Shown here: piece after piece, positions 1-38,383 of the stretch
Numbering within the stretch: position 1 is the stretch's first letter
How the letters are laid out: each line of letters starts with the position of its first letter
Translations under genes and position numbers: made by a program
The notes under the pieces: model-generated
What the model was told of the DNA's origin: nothing
Databases searched by the model: none
Seen by the model: the letters and a program-made list of their open reading frames with translations, nothing else
Virus record (IMG/VR): IMGVR_UViG_2579778622_000004
Source of the DNA: a virus
Taxonomy: Duplodnaviria > Heunggongvirae > Uroviricota > Caudoviricetes
DNA length: 39,867 nucleotides
Direction: 5' to 3' (one strand)

Positions 1-698
1 ATGCGAATGCCAGCGGCGCTTGCTGATTCTTCATATGCGCGTTTAGCAGCGTTAAGGATTGCTGCCAGTGGCGTATAGCCGCCATCCATTCGGATTGTGT
101 TGTGGATGCCAGCCATTGTGTCGCGCAATTTGCTGTGGCTAGCAGACAGTTCTGCAATGCGCTTCTCTGCGGCTTCCAGCGCCGCAACCAATTCGTCTAC
201 AGTTCCGGCAGCTTGCAGTGCGTAATCGGTAATAGACATCTCATGATCAATTTCAGTACCGTTCTCATTAGTTGAGGTGATAGCAAAATAATCAGAGTCG
301 ATTTCGTTATCAGCTAAGTGGCGTAGCGTATCGGCAACAAGCTGACCGTTTTCGATTAACAGCTTCCCTACCGTTAGCGCAATATCCTCGTTCTCCTGAT
401 CGCGGCGTTTTATGTATTGCTGGTTTCTTTCCAGTTCATCCAGTAATGCCGTCACGGTAGCTGGATTGGCTGCGGCGATGAATTCAGCATTGGCCTGCTG
501 TTCTATTTGGAAATCTTCATCGAAACCGCTTTCAGGATGCGCTCCTTCAATTCTGCAAATGGGAATATATCCAGCAACTTCACGATGAATTAGCGCATCA
601 TCACCATCAAATCGGCTCTTTCCATATTCGAGCGACCACTCGCCACACGTTGCTTTTTCTGCCTTAGCACGCAGTGCCTGATAATCAATCTTGCTCAC
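1..698 (-). CDS. Ead/Ea22-like protein, paralogue 1 (3' end runs off the window)
   Basis: GTG start at 698 preceded by AAGGAGG; N-terminus VSKIDYQALRAKAEKATCGEW and FIAAANPATVTALLDEL resemble Ead/Ea22-family signature; open frame to position 1; GTGA stop/start overlap with upstream ORF. Confidence 0.5.
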   Translation of the reverse strand, partial: MSKIDYQALRAKAEKATCGEWSLEYGKSRFDGDDALIHREVAGYIPICRIEGAHPESGFDEDFQIEQQANAEFIAAANPATVTALLDELERNQQYIKRRDQENEDIALTVGKLLIENGQLVADTLRHLADNEIDSDYFAITSTNENGTEIDHEMSITDYALQAAGTVDELVAALEAAEKRIAELSASHSKLRDTMAGIHNTIRMDGGYTPLAAILNAAKRAYEESASAAGIR

Positions 699-1408
699 TG
701 GTTGCCTCCTTTGCGAAGCTGGGCAGCAAAGTCAACTAACCACTCAGTCATTTCAACCTTCCCTACCAGGTCTGAACCAGGGTGCATACAGCAATCACTC
801 TGCGCCGCTTTGAAATCCTTATACTCATATTCTTGGGCCACCAGATTTTTTGCAGCTTCTATAGCAGCATCCACCCCCTGCGCCCGAACTTCAGCCAGGA
901 AAGCGTCGGTGGCTGGAATTTGCGGCATCCCTCCGTCTGTTGCGCAGATATACGCATCAGATATTTCATCCTGCTGGCCATCAAACACGTAGCAACAGCC
1001 CCTGATAAACAGCTTCATTGAGGCATTCTCCACTGCCAGCGCCGTGCGATTACCATCCAGCTCTGCAATGCGCTGTTTTGCGGCATCCAGTTCAATCGAC
1101 AATTTTTCCAACTGCTCTTGATGCTTCTTGTATTCCTGATATGCGTGCCAAGACTGACCTTTGCGCACACTATCAGTGATATCAGTAATCTGTTCTGGTG
1201 TTAGCGTGGTCAGTGGCTGTGATGGGAAAATAAGCACTTTCCCGGAATCCCAATCAAAACCAGCGTGAATTGACTGAACCTCAACTGAAGGTGTTGAACC
1301 AATGCTGCCAGGCGAATGAACAACGATTGTTACATCCATATCGCGACGATGGCTGTGGTTGTTGGACAAAATACGATTCACCAACTCAGAAAATTTGGAA
1401 AATTTCAT
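695..1408 (-). CDS. Hypothetical protein; C-terminal half shared with Ead-like paralogues, different N-terminus
   Basis: 237-aa ORF; shares PATDAFLAE(V/I)RA segment and terminal QLRKGGNQ tail with 1692..2393; ATGA overlap with upstream ORF. Confidence 0.5.
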   Translation of the reverse strand: MKFSKFSELVNRILSNNHSHRRDMDVTIVVHSPGSIGSTPSVEVQSIHAGFDWDSGKVLIFPSQPLTTLTPEQITDITDSVRKGQSWHAYQEYKKHQEQLEKLSIELDAAKQRIAELDGNRTALAVENASMKLFIRGCCYVFDGQQDEISDAYICATDGGMPQIPATDAFLAEVRAQGVDAAIEAAKNLVAQEYEYKDFKAAQSDCCMHPGSDLVGKVEMTEWLVDFAAQLRKGGNQ

Positions 1409-1695
1409 GCTGATTCCCCTTTCTCTGCTCTCTCCTGTCGGAACATCACTATCATCAGGTCGCCTTTTGTCGCTATCCTGGCTGTTGTACCTGGTTCAAT
1501 GCGGCTAAGCTCAAATGCGTCATAGAACGCTTCTAATGCCTTCTGGCGTAGTTCCTGTTTGCGCCGTTTTTTCCACTGTTTTAGGAAAATGGAACCCAGC
1601 CATCGCCATGTACGGGACATGATGTAAAGCCAACCGAGAAGTGCCAGACCGGTATTTAGGAGCGTATCGATCGTTATTGTCGTGTCGATATTCAC
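1405..1695 (-). CDS. Small membrane protein
   Basis: GTG start at 1695 in GTGA overlap with upstream stop, RBS AAGGAAG; hydrophobic segment LLNTGLALLGWLYIM; ORF track gives longer 1405..1728 version. Confidence 0.4.
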   Translation of the reverse strand: MNIDTTITIDTLLNTGLALLGWLYIMSRTWRWLGSIFLKQWKKRRKQELRQKALEAFYDAFELSRIEPGTTARIATKGDLMIVMFRQERAEKGESA

Positions 1696-2393
1696 TGGCT
1701 GCTTCCTTTGCGAATCTGTTCCGCCCATTCTTCAAGGGATTTCTCCGCATATTCACCAGACAGGCCATCAATCGGATGCGCTTCATTAGCCAACTCTTCT
1801 TTCGCTGACAAAATCATGCGTGTAACGTCGAAAACTTCACGCAAAGACTTATTGATAAATCCGTGATTGAACGCAGCAGCAAGACGGCTGGCGGTATAGT
1901 TAATCCCCTCGTTGCGTGCTTCCGCACGAATTTCAGCCAGAAAAGCATCGGTAGCTGGAGTTTCGCTGTGGTGTAGGGCATCGTTGATAATCATTGCAGC
2001 AACACCAGCCTGCCCTGCATCCGTGACCGACACATGCTCAAGAGTTACGGCCATTGCGTGTTTCAGCCCGGCGTTCTCTGCCACCAGCGCCGCGAGCTTA
2101 GTCTCAAGCGGTGCTATTCGGCACATAGCATCAATATTTGTGTCCTCCAGGCGCTTAATTTCACCAAGTAGCGCCAGTGCAACCTTTGGGTTGAATGCGG
2201 CAACATAACGAGCGTTGTTCTCTGCGTTTTTCAGCCCATCAAAGCCGGTCCATTTGATAACATCTTCACATCGTTTATCACCGGGCGTATGCACCGCATA
2301 CGTACCAGTACCCGGCGAAATAAATGCGACCCATTCGCCCTGTGTTGCCTGTTTTGCTATCTCACGCAGTGCCCGGTAATTAATTTTGCTCAC
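1692..2393 (-). CDS. Ead/Ea22-like protein, paralogue 2
   Basis: GTG start at 2393 with AAGGAGG RBS (ORF track extends to 2429 but without RBS); N-terminus VSKINYRALREIAKQATQGEW, AAFNPKVALALLGEI; ends AEQIRKGSSQ. Confidence 0.5.
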   Translation of the reverse strand: MSKINYRALREIAKQATQGEWVAFISPGTGTYAVHTPGDKRCEDVIKWTGFDGLKNAENNARYVAAFNPKVALALLGEIKRLEDTNIDAMCRIAPLETKLAALVAENAGLKHAMAVTLEHVSVTDAGQAGVAAMIINDALHHSETPATDAFLAEIRAEARNEGINYTASRLAAAFNHGFINKSLREVFDVTRMILSAKEELANEAHPIDGLSGEYAEKSLEEWAEQIRKGSSQ

Positions 2394-2629
2394 TGGCTGC
2401 CTCCTTTGCGGAGTTGCGCTTCGATGCACGAAAAAAAAGACTCCCGAGTATGACTGTTAAGAGCTGGTGCGAACGCCGCGTTAAGAACGGCAGCATCACA
2501 GCCGTCATCAATATAGAGCGCAATTTTTTTCTCCAGGCGCGCTTTGGCTTCCTGCAACTGCATACCCCGGCACGCACGCGGGATATAATCAGCAATTTGA
2601 GCGATAGCTTTTTCGTTCTGTTTAAACAT
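2390..2629 (-). CDS. Hypothetical small protein (79 aa) ending in the shared QLRKGGSQ tail
   Basis: ORF with GAGGTG RBS; stop overlaps GTG of next gene. Confidence 0.35.
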   Translation of the reverse strand: MFKQNEKAIAQIADYIPRACRGMQLQEAKARLEKKIALYIDDGCDAAVLNAAFAPALNSHTRESFFSCIEAQLRKGGSQ

Positions 2630-2825
2630 GCTTCACCTCGATAGGCTTGATGGTGTCTAACAGCAGTCGACGGCGCGTATTTTCTGCAAAGTGGCGGCGT
2701 CCGGTATCTTTGTGGTAAAACTCATTTTTGCCGACGACCCACATCCGCTCTGTTTGGTGCAGTTTTTTTACCTGCGGACCGTCTTTGGTGATCACGGTGC
2801 CGGTATGGGTTTTTACGATTGTCAT
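2622..2825 (-). CDS. Hypothetical small basic protein (67 aa)
   Basis: ORF in operon context; 8-nt overlap with downstream start. Confidence 0.35.
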   Translation of the reverse strand: MTIVKTHTGTVITKDGPQVKKLHQTERMWVVGKNEFYHKDTGRRHFAENTRRRLLLDTIKPIEVKHV

Positions 2826-2908
2826 GCCACTACCTATTCGAACAGATGAACGAGACAGGCTGATGCTCGTCCACCTGAAAAACTGACGATTTGATGCATA
2901 CTCACGGT

Positions 2909-3637
2909 TTATTCCTGAATGCGCTTAAACTCGATTACCCACACCCAGGGATTAGCGTTCCAGCTTTCTTCACCATAGATGGATTCCCACAGGCGCTGGA
3001 ACGCAACCTTGGCCATTGCGAAATCCCCCTTGGGAGTAAGGAATGTTCCCGGGTGATCAGGAAGCAAACTTCCAGCAGGCGGAACGCCCTCAGCCCTTGC
3101 ATCGCATTCGCTGATATCGTTCAACCGTTCAACGCGCACGTTGGTAATTTCCAACAGAATGCGTGATGCCCATCGCGGCATGTGAATTGATGGACGCCAC
3201 CCACCATCAAACTTTTCATTCACAGTGTGAGGTTTCCAGTCGGCATCATCGGGTATCGACCATAAGCCGTAATCACCAGGTTTTTGCTCGCAACTGGCCC
3301 GATAAATCCTTGCTGCGTTCTTCTCATCGCCACGACAAAGGTTGTCGTTCCAGTCCACACTGCAACCATCCTCATTGCCTAATATCGCCCATGTTTCACG
3401 AACCCAAATTCGATCGCCGACGATACCAAAGGGGCAATTGAAAACACTGCTTACACCATCAGCCCCGTACCACTGAAAACCTGCACCAATTTCCCTAACC
3501 ATCACTGGTGCTTCTGGACCAACTTCCGCAGGCTGATTTTTCATTATCCGCCGCGTCTGCGTTTTCCTTCCTTCGAGGATGGCTCGGACCATCTCATCGT
3601 TGAAAATCATGCCGCGCTCTTTCACTTCGCCTTTCAT
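2909..3637 (-). CDS. ASCH/PUA-like domain protein with extra C-terminal domain
   Basis: N-terminus MIFNDEMVRAILEGRKTQTRR matches the ASCH-domain opening motif as I recall it; 242 aa. Confidence 0.45.
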   Translation of the reverse strand: MKGEVKERGMIFNDEMVRAILEGRKTQTRRIMKNQPAEVGPEAPVMVREIGAGFQWYGADGVSSVFNCPFGIVGDRIWVRETWAILGNEDGCSVDWNDNLCRGDEKNAARIYRASCEQKPGDYGLWSIPDDADWKPHTVNEKFDGGWRPSIHMPRWASRILLEITNVRVERLNDISECDARAEGVPPAGSLLPDHPGTFLTPKGDFAMAKVAFQRLWESIYGEESWNANPWVWVIEFKRIQE

Positions 3638-3646
3638 GCATCCCCC

Positions 3647-3733
3647 TTACCCATGCGCGACGATGCCGCCAAAAGTGATAGAGAACAGCCAGAAATAGAT
3701 CGCGGCCATAATGATTTTGAATGCCGTGTTCAT
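3647..3733 (-). CDS. Small hydrophobic peptide (28 aa), single predicted transmembrane helix
   Basis: ATG at 3733 preceded by CAGGAGCTG; MNTAFKIIMAAIYFWLFSITFGGIVAHG; not in supplied ORF track (below size cutoff). Confidence 0.3.
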   Translation of the reverse strand: MNTAFKIIMAAIYFWLFSITFGGIVAHG

Positions 3734-3815
3734 ATTTTCAGCTCCTGTGATTGATTGGATACATGCCGCGCCTTACGGCATGTTTTTATTTTCACTTTCT
3801 CTGTTTTAAAAATCA

Positions 3816-3832
3816 AGATTTATTAGAGCAAT
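3816..3832 (-). promoter_or_regulatory. C1-type operator (16/17 match to ATTGCTCTAATAAATTT)
   Basis: Reverse complement of 3816..3832 is ATTGCTCTAATAAATCT; lies between HAD gene stop and the small-peptide/ASCH operon. Confidence 0.55.
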
Positions 3833-4338
3833 TATTGTTGATGTAGAAGCGCGTTTTCATACTCCCTGACCATTAACGTAAGTACGCCGTGACTCCTGAA
3901 AACACGCGCCACTTCAATCTTATCTTCCAGCGCGAACGCAATTTTACTTAGACCAATTTTCTTCAGGAGATCAATCTTTGCTGGACCGTCATTTCTGTCA
4001 TCGGTGGCAGGACGCATAGATAGCAAAGGCTCCGCCCCATTTGTTACGTGCTTACGCAACCAGGCTCGTGTTTTATCCCTGGCTATCTCACAGCGCCCGG
4101 TTACAAACCAGAGGGTGTAAATGCCGGACAACTGGCGCACCATATCAATAACTGGAGTGATGGGAGCATCAGTGTCACAGGCAAGGTTAAACTCGTTCCA
4201 GTGCTCTGTTAATGCACCTTTGCCAGGTGGTGGAAGTAAATGCAGCCTGTCTTCCGTTGCCTCTGATATCGTCCCATCAATATCTACTATGACGATGTAC
4301 GGACGTTCCTGGTGTGCGTGTTTATTGAAAATACTCAA
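3832..4338 (-). CDS. HAD-superfamily phosphatase-like protein
   Basis: 168 aa; motif I VIVDIDGTI (DxDGT), downstream conserved T/K/acidic motifs. Confidence 0.55.
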   Translation of the reverse strand: MSIFNKHAHQERPYIVIVDIDGTISEATEDRLHLLPPPGKGALTEHWNEFNLACDTDAPITPVIDMVRQLSGIYTLWFVTGRCEIARDKTRAWLRKHVTNGAEPLLSMRPATDDRNDGPAKIDLLKKIGLSKIAFALEDKIEVARVFRSHGVLTLMVREYENALLHQQ

Positions 4339-4410
4339 ATGCCCTCCTCATTGGACGAAAAAAATGCTGGTGGGCGCACTCCACCAGCATTAAATGTGAC
4401 ACTGTAACTA

Positions 4411-5673
4411 TCAGCGAACGTAAATAGTGCCGCCGTTCTCTTTTTCCCATGCATCGCTAAGTGCATAGCAAACATCAAGAAGTCTTCTTGCCGCTGTTTC
4501 CTCTAAACCCAATTCGACAACCAACTGCTCATGACGGCGGGTAACCACATCAAACAGGGTATGCAGCCCTTTAGTTGCCAGATCATCAATGAATTCCGGT
4601 TCGAACGGCAGCTCTACCTCTGCCAACATAACCTCTTGCGCCCACTCAACTCGACGGACCAGTTCCGGGCGGCGGCTTTCCATCTCTTTACAGATCAATT
4701 CATGGAAGAACTCTACCCAACCTTCCGGCTGGAACTCGCGGAAAATTGCCAACGGCTGGAAGTTTGGCATCAACCATTCGTTGATCCGGATATCAATGGC
4801 ATAGCCCATGTCGCAGCAGAACTGATAAGCAAAGTCCAGCTTAGAAACGATATAAGGACGCTCGTTATTGAACTCTTTAGGCGATGAGATCCCATAAGCC
4901 AGGAGGCGCGGGAAGAAGGAGATTTGCCCTAACGTCGGATGAAGTTTGCTTGCAGGGAAACGGCGCTCAGTAATGCCATACATTTCCTTCTTGAGCGTCG
5001 CAAATTTGGCATTCTCATTAACCAGCGCGGTAACCTCTGCTTTTTTATTAGCAAATGCCACGCGCGCTTCGCTTGCATCTTTAATAGTTTTTTTGAGCTG
5101 TTGGTTAAGGTCGGCGACCTGCTTACGCAGTTCCTGTCGCTCGCTTTTAGCTTTGTTATAGCGTTTCTCAAGGTTAAAAGGATCAAGTTTCATGATCTCT
5201 TTATATTGAGATTTTAGCGTTGAAATCTGTGAGTTCCGCAGTTCAACCATCGCGGTCATTTCATTGAGTTTTGTTTCCAGCTCAATGCTTATACGTTCGG
5301 CATTATCAGCACGCTGGTTGGCGTCATGCGTCGCATCGTCGATCGCGTCCTGTTGCTGGCGTTTCAAATGTTCAATTTGCAGCTGAAGCTCTTCAATTTC
5401 TTTACCCTTCAGACCGAGATCCAACTGCATATTTTCAGCTGCATCTACCAGGGAGTTATGGCTATCAGCTTCTGCGTTATAAACATCAATAAGCTGTGCG
5501 TGAAGCATCTCCGCTGACTGAACCGCATTATCAAAAAAACGTGCTGTGAGGTCATCACAACTAACGCGGCGTTGCGCGGCCCGGATGTTCTGGATAATGG
5601 CCGGGATACCGGCATTCAGGACATCAGGGATAGATACATTTTCGATTGATTGGTTTTGTGCTGAAGTGCTCAT
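4411..5673 (-). CDS. Coiled-coil protein of unknown function (420 aa)
   Basis: Long heptad-like charged central region (approx aa 90-240) and Cys/Trp-containing C-terminal domain; no recognisable catalytic motif. Confidence 0.6.
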   Translation of the reverse strand: MSTSAQNQSIENVSIPDVLNAGIPAIIQNIRAAQRRVSCDDLTARFFDNAVQSAEMLHAQLIDVYNAEADSHNSLVDAAENMQLDLGLKGKEIEELQLQIEHLKRQQQDAIDDATHDANQRADNAERISIELETKLNEMTAMVELRNSQISTLKSQYKEIMKLDPFNLEKRYNKAKSERQELRKQVADLNQQLKKTIKDASEARVAFANKKAEVTALVNENAKFATLKKEMYGITERRFPASKLHPTLGQISFFPRLLAYGISSPKEFNNERPYIVSKLDFAYQFCCDMGYAIDIRINEWLMPNFQPLAIFREFQPEGWVEFFHELICKEMESRRPELVRRVEWAQEVMLAEVELPFEPEFIDDLATKGLHTLFDVVTRRHEQLVVELGLEETAARRLLDVCYALSDAWEKENGGTIYVR

Positions 5674-5674
5674 T

Positions 5675-5893
5675 TCAAAGTTCCGTATTAGCTTGTGCTT
5701 CGGTCATTTTTCCTAAGTATGAAGGAGGAAGGACTACGCAATTTGTATCCAGTCCCTCACCTATGGCAGCCTGTAAAATTCTGGCTAAGGTGAGTCTCTT
5801 GTTGCGATACCTGGTGATGACATGCCTGATACCGCCGGTCGGCGTAACAAAGGCGATCAGCCAGTAGTGATATTTCCGTCGGAATGGCCACAT
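5675..5893 (-). CDS. Hypothetical small protein (72 aa)
   Basis: ATG at 5893 with AAGGTG RBS; stop adjacent to next start. Confidence 0.35.
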   Translation of the reverse strand: MWPFRRKYHYWLIAFVTPTGGIRHVITRYRNKRLTLARILQAAIGEGLDTNCVVLPPSYLGKMTEAQANTEL

Positions 5894-5907
5894 AGTGCAC
5901 CTTGTAG

Positions 5908-5924
5908 ATTGCTCTAATAAAAAA
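5908..5924 (+). promoter_or_regulatory. C1-type operator (14/17)
   Basis: ATTGCTCTAATAAAAAA; overlaps left arm of hairpin. Confidence 0.45.
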
Positions 5925-5948
5925 CGTGATGAGTGTACATCACGTTTT
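5921..5948. terminator. Bidirectional rho-independent terminator-like hairpin
   Basis: AAAACGTGATG / CATCACGTTTT 11-bp inverted repeat with 6-nt loop, A-run before and T-run after on both strands. Confidence 0.55.
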
Positions 5949-5956
5949 AAAAATAT

Positions 5957-5973
5957 GGAATTATTAGAGCAAT
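5957..5973 (-). promoter_or_regulatory. C1-type operator (14/17)
   Basis: Reverse complement ATTGCTCTAATAATTCC; abuts stop of 5975..6676. Confidence 0.45.
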
Positions 5974-5974
5974 A

Positions 5975-6676
5975 TTATTCTGATTCTCGCTCAAAAAACG
6001 AGCTAATAAGGGGAAGCCAATCCTCTGACACTTCGCGAGGTCGCGGTTTGCCGTGGAAAAAGATTATTCGGCAGTCCTTTGGTAATGCCCCATTCCCCCT
6101 GGAGTAACGCGCGCTCGCATATTTTGAACCAGGTTCCACAACATCGGCCTTGTAACTTACAAACCATCCTGGATACAGATCCTGAAATGCTGGTGTATCA
6201 TCGCCCATAACCTTCCGTAAGAACCCCTGATCACCCCAGCACTCAGTAGTGACACAACGAGAAATCCAACCTTCCGGATCTTGCCAGAATGAACTCCAGA
6301 TATGCGCTTTAACACTATTTGGTATCCACAAGGCACCGCTGCCACGATATTGTGGATGGTAAAAATCCCTAAGCATGGTGAAGCTGGTTGGTGGATGCTC
6401 TAGGATTGGGCGTATATCACCGGCAATAACCGTGTCCAAATCCAGATAGAACAGATCATCGGTTATATCCGGTCGGAACAACTCGATTTTCGCCCACCAG
6501 CCACGGCACTTTTGCCACTGGTTGATCAATGGGACAACTTTGACGCCAGGTACATGTAAACGCTTCAGGTCTGTCAGGCAAATAATTTCATAGCCTTTTG
6601 GCAGTTGATTAACCAGCCACTGCACATCGGAAGCGTTATAGTCACCACCAGAGCGAAAAACTAAAGCAATCTTCAT
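5975..6676 (-). CDS. Putative GT-A-fold glycosyltransferase (DXD-type)
   Basis: 233 aa; [14 protein letters not shown]-terminus, LDLD acidic motif, GWWAKIELF; assignment by pattern only. Confidence 0.4.
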
Positions 6677-7973: not shown

Positions 7974-8533
7974 TGAATTGCACTGCTCCTACTTGCATTC
8001 AAAATATGTAAATCTGCGTGTTTTTTGCGGGTATCCAGGAACTGCTGTTGCCATTTTGAAATAGACACCTGCGTTGGATTCCGTAGGGCTTGAGGGTGCG
8101 CGCCATGCCAATGAAGGCCGTTTTGCAGAGAACAGTCATAGCCGACTAATACCACTACTTCAGCCCCTGATTCAGCAGCCAGACTGATAGCCTGCGCGCC
8201 GCTATTTACCCCTTCCGCCGGTCCACAATATCGCCTGTACTCCAACGAAAATGATTTCGCCGCCGCCAGGTTGGCTGTCACTTTGCGGAATCTCCCTCCC
8301 GGTATGGTGGATCCGTATTGCTTCCACCATGACAAATCACCGGCGTATAAGGCATAAATGTCATCGAACATCTGCCAGGAATTGTTAACCGCGATGATTG
8401 AACAGCCAGTTTTTTCTATAGCAGCACAGTCCTCACGAGTGAGTGACGGACCGCTACCGACACAAAAAACAGTCCTAGTCGCCCTGGGTGGTATGTTCAT
8501 TCTCAGCTGCAAATTCAGCCTCCAGGCGAGCAT
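7871..8533 (-). CDS. GT42 (CstII)-like / DUF115-like nucleotide-sugar transferase-fold protein, paralogue B
   Basis: VFCVGSGPSLTRED...IIAVNNS and NSGAQAISLAAESGAEVVVLVGYD; paralogous to 7347..7973. Confidence 0.45.
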   Translation of the reverse strand: MLAWRLNLQLRMNIPPRATRTVFCVGSGPSLTREDCAAIEKTGCSIIAVNNSWQMFDDIYALYAGDLSWWKQYGSTIPGGRFRKVTANLAAAKSFSLEYRRYCGPAEGVNSGAQAISLAAESGAEVVVLVGYDCSLQNGLHWHGAHPQALRNPTQVSISKWQQQFLDTRKKHADLHILNASRSSAIQCFPRINLEAVIALLSSAVAQAPQTLLRRAECRL

Positions 8534-8696
8534 TCATTTCAGCGATTACAGGGTCCACTACAGCATCTGTTTCCTGTTCATTACGCGGCATGATCGATGC
8601 CAGCGATTCATAATTAGCCTTGGATGACACGACTATTCTCCCGATGTTAATGTGCGCTATATCAAATGGCGCATATGTACTAATTAATTTATTATT

Positions 8697-22915: not shown

Positions 22916-22932
22916 ATATTTATTAGAGCAAT
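22916..22932 (-). promoter_or_regulatory. C1-type operator (16/17)
   Basis: Reverse complement ATTGCTCTAATAAATAT immediately upstream of the uhr-hrdC-dmt-like operon. Confidence 0.55.
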
Positions 22933-38366: not shown

Positions 38367-38383
38367 AAATTTATTAGAGCAAA
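38367..38383 (-). promoter_or_regulatory. C1-type operator (16/17) upstream of kilA-repL operon
   Basis: Reverse complement ATTTGCTCTAATAAATT; about 70 nt upstream of kilA start. Confidence 0.6.

Follow-up and report, generated by a model that had tools for sequence, protein, structure and literature searches.

A repeated tail, Shine-Dalgarno and start junction at sites of cassette gain and loss in the ea-type gene array of a P1-like phage-plasmid

How do unrelated small phage genes come to be joined by nearly the same two dozen nucleotides (nt), again and again? The question is raised by an array of ea-type genes at the start of virus record IMGVR_UViG_2579778622_000004, a stretch of 39,867 nt that was analysed whole and is called the window here. 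A first-pass annotation, made from the letters of the window, had pointed to three near-identical junctions in this array, each encoding the C-terminal tail of one gene, a ribosome-binding site and the GTG start of the next gene within a GTGA overlap, and had taken them for recombination linkers used in cassette shuffling or copy-number change. We consider it probable, from the sequence comparisons described below, that the junction is a translational-coupling signal that also offers phage-type homologous recombination a short patch of homology.

Structure of the junction and constraint on its nucleotides

Three direct-repeat copies of the junction (family D2), each 89% identical to the reference copy, were found in the window and are called J1, J2 and J3 (Table 1). 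On the minus (coding) strand the junction is 23-27 nt long and reads CGCAAAGGA(G/A)GCA(A/G)CCAGTGA, with core letters that can also be written CGCAAAGGAGGCAACCAGTGA. Its codons, CGC AAA GGA (G/A)GC A(A/G)C CAG TGA, specify the tail R-K-G-(G/S)-(N/S)-Q and a stop. When the whole window was scanned with the degenerate 23-mer, allowing up to three mismatches, three matches were returned against 0.00 expected from 100 shuffles. Minus-strand open reading frames (ORFs) end at these places in QLRKGGNQ (at 695), QIRKGSSQ (at 1692) and QLRKGGSQ (at 2390), each followed by TGA, and the upstream TGA and the downstream GTG share the 4 nt GTGA (695-698, 1692-1695 and 2390-2393). The segment AAAGGAGG is the Shine-Dalgarno (SD) sequence of the downstream gene, and the G of CAG together with the TG of TGA forms its GTG start. 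The SD lies inside the upstream ORF and ends 6 nt before the GTG. In a plasmid that is 99.7% identical to the window, the Prokaryotic Genome Annotation Pipeline (PGAP) called identical GTG starts with 4-nt overlaps. The repeat family, the 23-mer scan and the PGAP starts confirm the three near-identical junctions that had been noticed at first pass; the accompanying statement that all three carry the ribosome-binding site AAGGAGG holds for J1 and J3 and fails for J2, which has AAGGAAG.

J2 is the weaker copy in other respects as well. On the plus strand its 5' end reads ATAT, not TTGC, and it has GCTTCC in place of GCCTCC; it also precedes a DUF4752 gene, not an Ead gene. The outer copies, J1 and J3, lengthen to an 89-nt repeat (D1; 636-724 and 2331-2419, 78% identity) because the conserved Ead N-terminus MSKI(D/N)Y(Q/R)ALR comes after both of them. 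No terminator-like sites were found on the minus strand inside the array, and every gene pair in the array is coupled by an overlap, with or without a junction.

The junction was found to join many genes that have nothing else in common. Among 127 instances, many different C-termini were linked to many different N-termini, and the downstream genes included Ead/Ea22 variants, DUF4752 genes and genes with the N-termini VTGHAAILDMCCG.. and VSIVQRCRAE..SGGKDS... Clustering of the flanks by nucleotide sequence gave 21 upstream and 30 downstream clusters in 71 combinations, and single-linkage BLASTP with the common tail and head removed gave at least four unrelated upstream and at least ten unrelated downstream protein families. 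In instances with both flanks unrelated, per-site identity was ~0.25 outside the junction, rose from about -18 and dropped after +21; if an Ead gene with its conserved N-terminus follows, the drop came after ~+65 instead. A codon-agnostic search for the peptide tail yielded 184 tails of the form RK-G-(G/S)-x-Q followed by a stop. Lysine was AAA in 183 of these, and the first glycine (GGA), the glutamine (CAG) and the stop (TGA) were the same in all; the second G/S codon was GGC in 168, AGC in 15 and GGG in one. Variation was otherwise confined to the third base of the arginine codon and to the N/S codon. An equal codon constraint was seen in 57 instances, from 24 contexts, in the P1-like loci, for which Pap and not the junction was the basis of sampling.

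These tails could also be read as the element itself, that is, as primarily a C-terminal peptide motif (hydrophobic-A-A/E-Q/E-L/I-R-K-G-G-N/S-Q) serving as a partner-binding tail or stability tag, with nucleotide identity secondary. The tail is found on at least four unrelated protein families, and in the codons upstream of the core (-15 to -1; hydrophobic-A-A/E-Q/E-L/I) positions 1 and 2 are conserved and position 3 is random between unrelated contexts, as expected of a peptide. Within the core, however, synonymous sites are almost invariant, which selection at the protein level does not predict. One family, ending in NAMWRKGGNQ, has RKGGNQ alone in common with the others, and a second junction, with the tail IKGE and its stop encoded by AAAGGAGAGTGA, follows a like SD-in-tail logic with a different peptide. 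We believe a primarily peptide-level element to be quite unlikely, and the tail R-K-G-G-x-Q is best seen as largely a by-product of in-frame translation signals, because AAAGGAGG, in the frame of the upstream gene, spells exactly K-G-G, and the GTG comes from CAG-TGA.

The junction is widespread in related phages. An exact-pattern scan of IMG/VR for the core returned at least 120 contigs, and BLAST with an 81-nt junction region matched 423 phage records, including Shiga toxin (Stx)-converting phages, HK620-like phages, where the junction lies between eaE and eaD (N7, Gally and HF4s), and P22-like Salmonella phages, where it lies between eaE and eaA. In lambdoid phages it is found among the early-left 'ea'/exo-xis genes, with the recombination genes on one side and xis/int on the other; in Gally it is found downstream of recT/abc1 and upstream of xis/int, with the identical GTGA overlap. 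Lambdoid rec or xis markers were present in 34 of the 120 IMG/VR stretches, among the matches listed. The 81-nt query was found in 2300 of 5426 complete Escherichia coli (E. coli) genomes, at 3822 places (3297 chromosomal and 525 on plasmids) and at up to 10 per genome. When species-representative genomes were scanned for the exact core, one Escherichia contig and three matches in metagenome-assembled genomes were obtained, approximately the number expected by chance, and the exact core appears to be essentially confined to phages of the Escherichia group. Phage lambda was considered as an example and rejected: its ea22 GTG start lies in a GTGA overlap with the remnant of an upstream zinc-finger ORF, but lacks the RKGG core.

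Cassette gain and loss at the junction

We compared the window with 200 related loci, of which 120 (L001-L120) had been chosen by the exact core and 80 were P1-like loci fetched via Pap, independently of the junction. Among the P1-like loci, 22 had P1-type content from 3643 onward and the others were finely mosaic. Their junction count varied, with none in 41 loci, one in 24, two in nine and three in six, in agreement with the copy-number change that had been suspected. Raw end points of high-scoring segment pairs were dropped because paralogous cross-matches between junction copies confound them, and co-linear detection of clean indels and de-duplicated breakpoints were used in their place. 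In window coordinates, clusters of breakpoints were found at the junctions (668-737, 1692-1704 and 2361-2419), with four loci breaking exactly at 1692 (L185, L125, L091 and L087) and six within 2361-2419 (L134, L138, L174, L181, L183 and L150). De-duplicated breakpoints of the P1-like loci were 6.4-fold enriched within -45 to +75 of the junction stop, with a peak at 0 to +15.

Two of these loci carry hybrid junctions. The P1-like locus L091 follows the window at 98% identity for 4242 nt, as far as 1692, and then resumes at 721, from the J1 junction, with an overlap of 27 nt. The same hybrid junction is present in L087, a lambdoid prophage stretch with xis nearby, where the flanks are 95.8% and 93.6% identical to the window. 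In the alignment, the switch from one parent to the other (J2 on the left, J1 on the right) falls inside TTCGCAAAGGA. L091 being contiguous here, the 997-nt cassette of the window that carries the DUF4752 and EaE-like genes thus counts as an indel with J2 and J1 at its ends. As read from these alignments, crossovers have occurred inside the junction, cassette indels are bounded by it, and P1-like and lambdoid elements have exchanged material there.

In an all-against-all comparison, clean indels (at least 200 nt long, with flanks at least 92% identical) amounted to 370 unique events, and 117 of them were joined at a repeat of 15 nt or more. The repeat was the RKGG junction core in 28 events and the adjacent Ead N-terminal codons in 14; in another 24 it was a second tail/SD junction, CGCATCAAAGGAGAGTGA(TATG), encoding GIRIKGE and a stop, and other sequences accounted for 51. 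Taken together, the L091/L087 indel, the core and Ead-codon indels and the enrichment of breakpoints bear out the cassette gain and loss at the junction repeats that the first-pass annotation had anticipated in related elements.

The second junction, GGCATTCGCATCAAAGGAGAGTGATATG, is likewise standardised, with the tail GIRIKGE and its stop followed by an ATG, and has the tail type of lambda Ea22. It occurs in L005, L082, L035 and others, and its 24 unique clean indels are about as many as those at the RKGG junction. Positions 1-15 of the window encode ..SAAGIR, and a GIRIKGE element would fall just past the window start.

The explanation that we favour would account for these results as follows. 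The junction would be a compact inter-cistronic signal in a tightly packed, repressor-controlled phage operon, and a ribosome ending one cistron would be positioned at the start of the next (predicted translational coupling). The same ~21-27 nt recur where genes meet in the lambdoid 'ea' (exo-xis/early-left) region, at many such borders, with a patch of 37-54 nt when the downstream gene is Ead/Ea22 with its conserved N-terminus. Homologous recombination inside such patches, most plausibly by phage single-strand-annealing recombinases (Red-beta, RecT or Erf), would insert, delete or replace whole in-frame, translation-ready cassettes, and co-resident lambdoid prophages would supply both cassettes and enzymes. 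By the same route an ea array of lambdoid type would have entered the pmgT operon, which is under C1 control in this P1-like phage-plasmid, and the cassette number there would have become variable. An annealing recombinase is plausible because the minimal efficient pairing segment quoted for Red-beta, 23-27 bp, compared to 31-34 bp for RecA (PMC3945230), matches patches of 21-54 nt. If so, the junction sequence would be fully explained, with no need of selection for recombination, as a translational-coupling signal exploited by recombination. The coupling, the acting recombinase, and translation rather than evolvability as the selected function are what we infer from these comparisons.

Several points weigh against this explanation. 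Selection of L001-L120 by the core inflates the number of junction-flanked events, and the independent sample is the P1-like subset; the loci are related, and for this reason a p-value for the breakpoint enrichment is not meaningful. Many breakpoints lie off the junction (360/464, 870-921, 1024, 1906-1965, 2062, 2900-2936, 3546 and 3643), and at the joints of 253 of the 370 clean indels the overlap is shorter than 15 nt. Crossovers thus concentrate at several places, the junction being one, and some events are illegitimate. J2 and J1 of the window have just 11 nt perfectly identical at the presumed crossover, too few for the quoted pairing minima if the parent junctions were no more similar than these. 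The codon pattern upstream of the core suggests some peptide-level constraint that the coupling-and-recombination model leaves unexplained, and both coupling and recombination at the junction are deduced from the letters.

The off-junction events bear on an alternative in which the junction is kept for translation only, and the mosaicism arises by random illegitimate recombination and selection for joints at gene borders (Hendrix-type); the junction would then not be a favoured place for crossover in its own right. Gene borders without a junction are also frequent breakpoints (2837-2842, 2900-2936 and 3643), 209 of the 370 clean indels have no more than 5 nt of overlap at the joint, and the gene pairs of the array are overlap-coupled regardless of the junction. 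Random joints do not account for the hybrid junctions, however, which change parent inside common sequence with overlaps of 26-53 nt, or for the 42 unique indels whose crossover lies in the core or in the conserved codons next to it. The genes of unrelated proteins moreover have the same nucleotides at synonymous and spacer sites (GGC, A(A/G)C) on which an SD makes no demand. We regard this alternative as improbable.

The junction might instead be the target of a dedicated site-specific recombinase (integron-, shufflon- or cix-like), which we find hardly credible. The resemblance, of short repeats bounding mobile cassettes on a phage that encodes Cre and Cin elsewhere, is superficial: the array genes have no recombinase domain in Pfam or PHROGs, the junction has no significant hairpin or inverted repeat (z ~0) and no Rfam match, and unrelated short repeats mediate an equal kind of indel. 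Crossover positions are spread over ~70 nt (668-737 and 2361-2419), not fixed. With no recombinase in the array genes, no structured site and no fixed crossover, a site-specific cassette system was rejected. An RNA element was also rejected, as Rfam gave no match to positions 1-4400 at E up to 1 and folding of the three junctions with 40 nt on either side gave z = 0.23, 0.24 and -0.22. That the three copies reflect chance or low complexity, or remain from a recent tandem gene duplication, has next to no probability in our estimation. The outer copies do precede paralogous Ead genes and extend to the 89-nt repeat, as a duplication would leave them, but no match was expected by chance, the middle copy joins non-paralogous genes, and hundreds of further elements have this junction between a wide variety of unrelated genes.

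Other short repeats were found at breakpoints. A conserved 105-nt island inside the Ead gene at the window start (Table 1) is 88-98% identical in most mosaic variants while its flanks differ, and its ends are a recurrent breakpoint pair, which makes it a putative intragenic recombination patch. The segment encoding (P)ATDAFLAE(V/I)RAQG is 85% identical between the genes for the 237- and 233-amino acid (aa) proteins (D5; 881-921 and 1923-1963), and a 3.7-kilobase (kb) indel between L009 and L059 has its crossover in a 49-nt form of this segment. A repeat of 27-32 nt with a palindrome, GGC(T/A)GGCAACTATCCGGATATTCCGGA.., flanks indels of 1.7-2.0 kb (L125, L136, L137 and L138 compared to L151 and L178); it lies ~4-8 kb downstream of pap, past the window start, in the variable region of P1-like elements.

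Genes of the array and its locus

All genes in 1-6000 are on the minus strand, and the features of the array are collected in Table 1. We identify the window as a P1-like phage-plasmid: identity to phage P1 is ~97% in pap and the genes around it, and the best matches are E. coli P1-like phage-plasmids. The C1 operator next to pap is the counterpart of the site annotated in P1 as OpmgT (Op88), where the PpmgT promoters are also marked, and the array is predicted to be in a C1-controlled operon downstream of OpmgT. In P1 the operon runs on as pmgT-pmgU-pmgV-upfM..hot-lxr-humD-phd-doc, and in the window the array replaces everything past the first part of pmgT. In the closest relative, L178, the array continues to humD-phd-doc. 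L178 is 100% identical to the window over 361-4314 only; positions 1-360 are unmatched there, and a 251-aa Ead gene lies in L178 where the window has its partial Ead/Ea22-like gene.

Table 1. Features of the junction-bearing array and neighbouring genes (window coordinates)
Feature	Position	Strand	Description
J1	695..721	-	tail ..AAQLRKGGNQ and TGA of EaE-like 237-aa gene; SD AAGGAGG; GTG (698) of Ead/Ea22 gene
J2	1692..1718	-	tail ..EQIRKGSSQ and TGA of Ead/Ea22 233-aa gene; SD AAGGAAG; GTG (1695) of DUF4752 gene
J3	2390..2416	-	tail ..EAQLRKGGSQ and TGA of 79-aa gene; SD AAGGAGG; GTG (2393) of Ead/Ea22 233-aa gene
Ead/Ea22-like gene, partial	1..698	-	GTG start at 698; PF13935 98.2 bits; runs off window start
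Conserved 105-nt island in Ead gene	360..464	-	encodes ..NPATVTALLDELERNQQYIKRRDQENEDIALT / ..LLDELERNQQYIKRRDQENEDIALT, as in lambda Ea22
997-nt cassette (DUF4752 and EaE-like)	695..1691	-	bounded by J2 and J1; absent from L091 and L087
EaE-like gene, 237 aa	695..1408	-	phrog_368, phrog_6026; RefSeq calls identical context 'eae-like domain protein'
DUF4752 gene, 96 aa	1405..1695	-	GTG start; PF15944 143.8 bits; stop overlaps next ATG (ATGA)
Ead/Ea22-like gene, 233 aa	1692..2393	-	GTG start; PF13935 93.3 bits; phrog_368; PGAP call in relative
79-aa gene	2390..2629	-	phrog_1344, function unknown; 8-residue tail alone common to other genes
67-aa gene	2622..2825	-	phrog_1226; upstream of 79-aa gene, 8-nt overlap with it
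PmgT-like gene, 242 aa	2909..3637	-	first gene of operon; P1 similarity ends near 2943
C1 repressor operator OpmgT (former Op88)	3816..3832	-	1 mismatch to consensus; immediately after pap stop
pap	3832-4338	-	HAD/PNKP phosphatase domain; intact in window

The N-terminal part of the EaE-like 237-aa protein is unrelated to Ead, and its C-terminal ~125 aa are homologous to the C-terminal part of the 233-aa Ead protein (BLASTP, 28% identity, E = 3e-7). For this pair the idea that genes joined by the junction carry a shared C-terminal module stands; for the 79-aa protein it falls. PF13935, with a gathering threshold of 27 bits, had no match in the 237- and 79-aa proteins, and a search of the array proteins against NCBIfam gave no matches.

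Parts of the array were found at ~90-98% identity in Yersinia phages vB_YpM_41/44, in Klebsiella plasmids and in Salmonella phage SJ46, and the cassettes therefore circulate beyond E. coli. In L178, an ORF at 8070-8960 resembles an insertion sequence transposase by the look of its translation; it lies directly upstream of pap and truncates the pap 5' end, and the match to the window resumes at 4314. The P1 C1 operator consensus ATTGCTCTAATAAATTT had eight matches in the window with up to three mismatches, compared to 0.24 expected: 3816-3832 (-), 5908-5924 (+), 5957-5973 (-), 9581-9597 (+), an overlapping pair at 19629-19656, 22916-22932 (-) and 38367-38383 (-). Between the C1 operator and the PmgT-like gene, a 25-codon ORF on the minus strand (3655-3732), MNTAFKIIMAAIYFWLFSITFGGIV.., is hydrophobic and membrane-like by its look.

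Significance and comparison with known systems

A full-text literature search for the motif strings found no paper with the motif, Clark et al. 2001 lying outside that search. The use of one triple-function junction as a standard unit, in several copies, seems to be undescribed, as do its quantitative tie to cassette indels and its part in lambdoid-to-P1 exchange. A further-reaching possibility, which appears doubtful to us on present sequence patterns, is that selection maintains the junction as a standardised 'plug' that favours evolvability, or that otherwise unrelated early proteins have a functional peptide tag in this tail. As a plug, one ~25-nt module would give stop, SD and start, and a recombined cassette would automatically be in frame and translated. 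Lambdoid, P22-like and P1-like temperate phages would then trade accessory early genes without a dedicated recombinase, in effect a recombinase-free natural cassette system. In the weaker variant, the tail hydrophobic-AxQLRKGGxQ would be the functional tag.

The sources of mosaic phage genomes have been disputed between homologous exchange at short linkers (Botstein, Clark) and random illegitimate joints followed by selection (Hendrix). The junction is an unusually clean case for this dispute, with a defined length of 21-27 nt, an obvious role in translation, thousands of copies and dozens of internal crossovers, and it points to exchange between two very different types of temperate phage. 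It would also provide a mechanistic account of the pmgT-humD variability in P1-like phage-plasmids, which are carriers of resistance genes. As a practical marker, the junction may serve to delimit cassettes among the poorly understood exo-xis/'ea' genes, which influence the lysis-lysogeny decision in Stx phages.

In classical operons, translation is coupled where a stop and a start codon overlap (ATGA/GTGA) and the SD belongs to the coding sequence of the preceding gene. The junction is like such coupled cistrons in its 4-nt GTGA overlap, in the strong SD 6 nt upstream in the preceding ORF and in having no terminators between the cistrons of the array. Ordinary coupled junctions, however, are specific to a gene pair, whereas the present one is standardised over many unrelated pairs and forces a common C-terminal peptide on them. 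The array has likenesses to integron attC cassettes as well: the genes are promoterless, are gained and lost one at a time, and are read from one upstream promoter. It differs from them in that an integrase, imperfect inverted repeats of the attC type and a fixed crossover point are all absent, and exchange would proceed by homologous recombination, general or of phage type.

De Paepe et al. (2014, PMC3945230) traced lambdoid mosaicism to relaxed homologous recombination by Rad52-like phage recombinases. As in that case, mosaic segments are flanked here by short or diverged homology, and the junction size fits the Red-beta minimum. That work concerns diverged homologies of hundreds of base pairs, whereas the present patch is a discrete 21-54 nt at a gene border, on which the action of a recombinase is predicted. 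The locus itself corresponds to what passages of two papers on P1-like phage-plasmids (PMC9603915, also PMC6906374) term "highly variable region 8" (pmgT to humD); in many of these elements pmgT/pmgU and their neighbours are swapped for unrelated ORFs, and JL22 has an ea22-type gene. The passages searched in these papers treat variability of gene content, not the junction or a mechanism, and mosaicism of the ea22 gene was already known (PMC10834534).

The closest parallel is with the boundary sequences of lambdoid phages. Susskind and Botstein (1978) are said to have put forward a modular theory with linkers, and Clark et al. (2001, J Mol Biol 311:657) reportedly described seven boundary sequences in HK620. 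The junction is like these in being short, in being conserved between otherwise unrelated neighbour genes and in lying in a non-structural region. As boundary sequences require, its nucleotides are conserved between non-homologous contexts, it is located at gene borders, and breakpoints between related genomes coincide with it, with the crossover inside. Unlike boundary sequences, it is intra-operonic and partly coding (tail, SD and start) rather than placed between functional modules, and it is repeated several times per genome and is present in P1-like phage-plasmids as well. In the part of PMC3029335 that cites them, Susskind-Botstein and Clark et al. 2001 are credited with proposing short conserved boundary sequences as foci of recombination in lambdoid phages. 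The junction is a clean and well-documented example of this boundary or linker idea.

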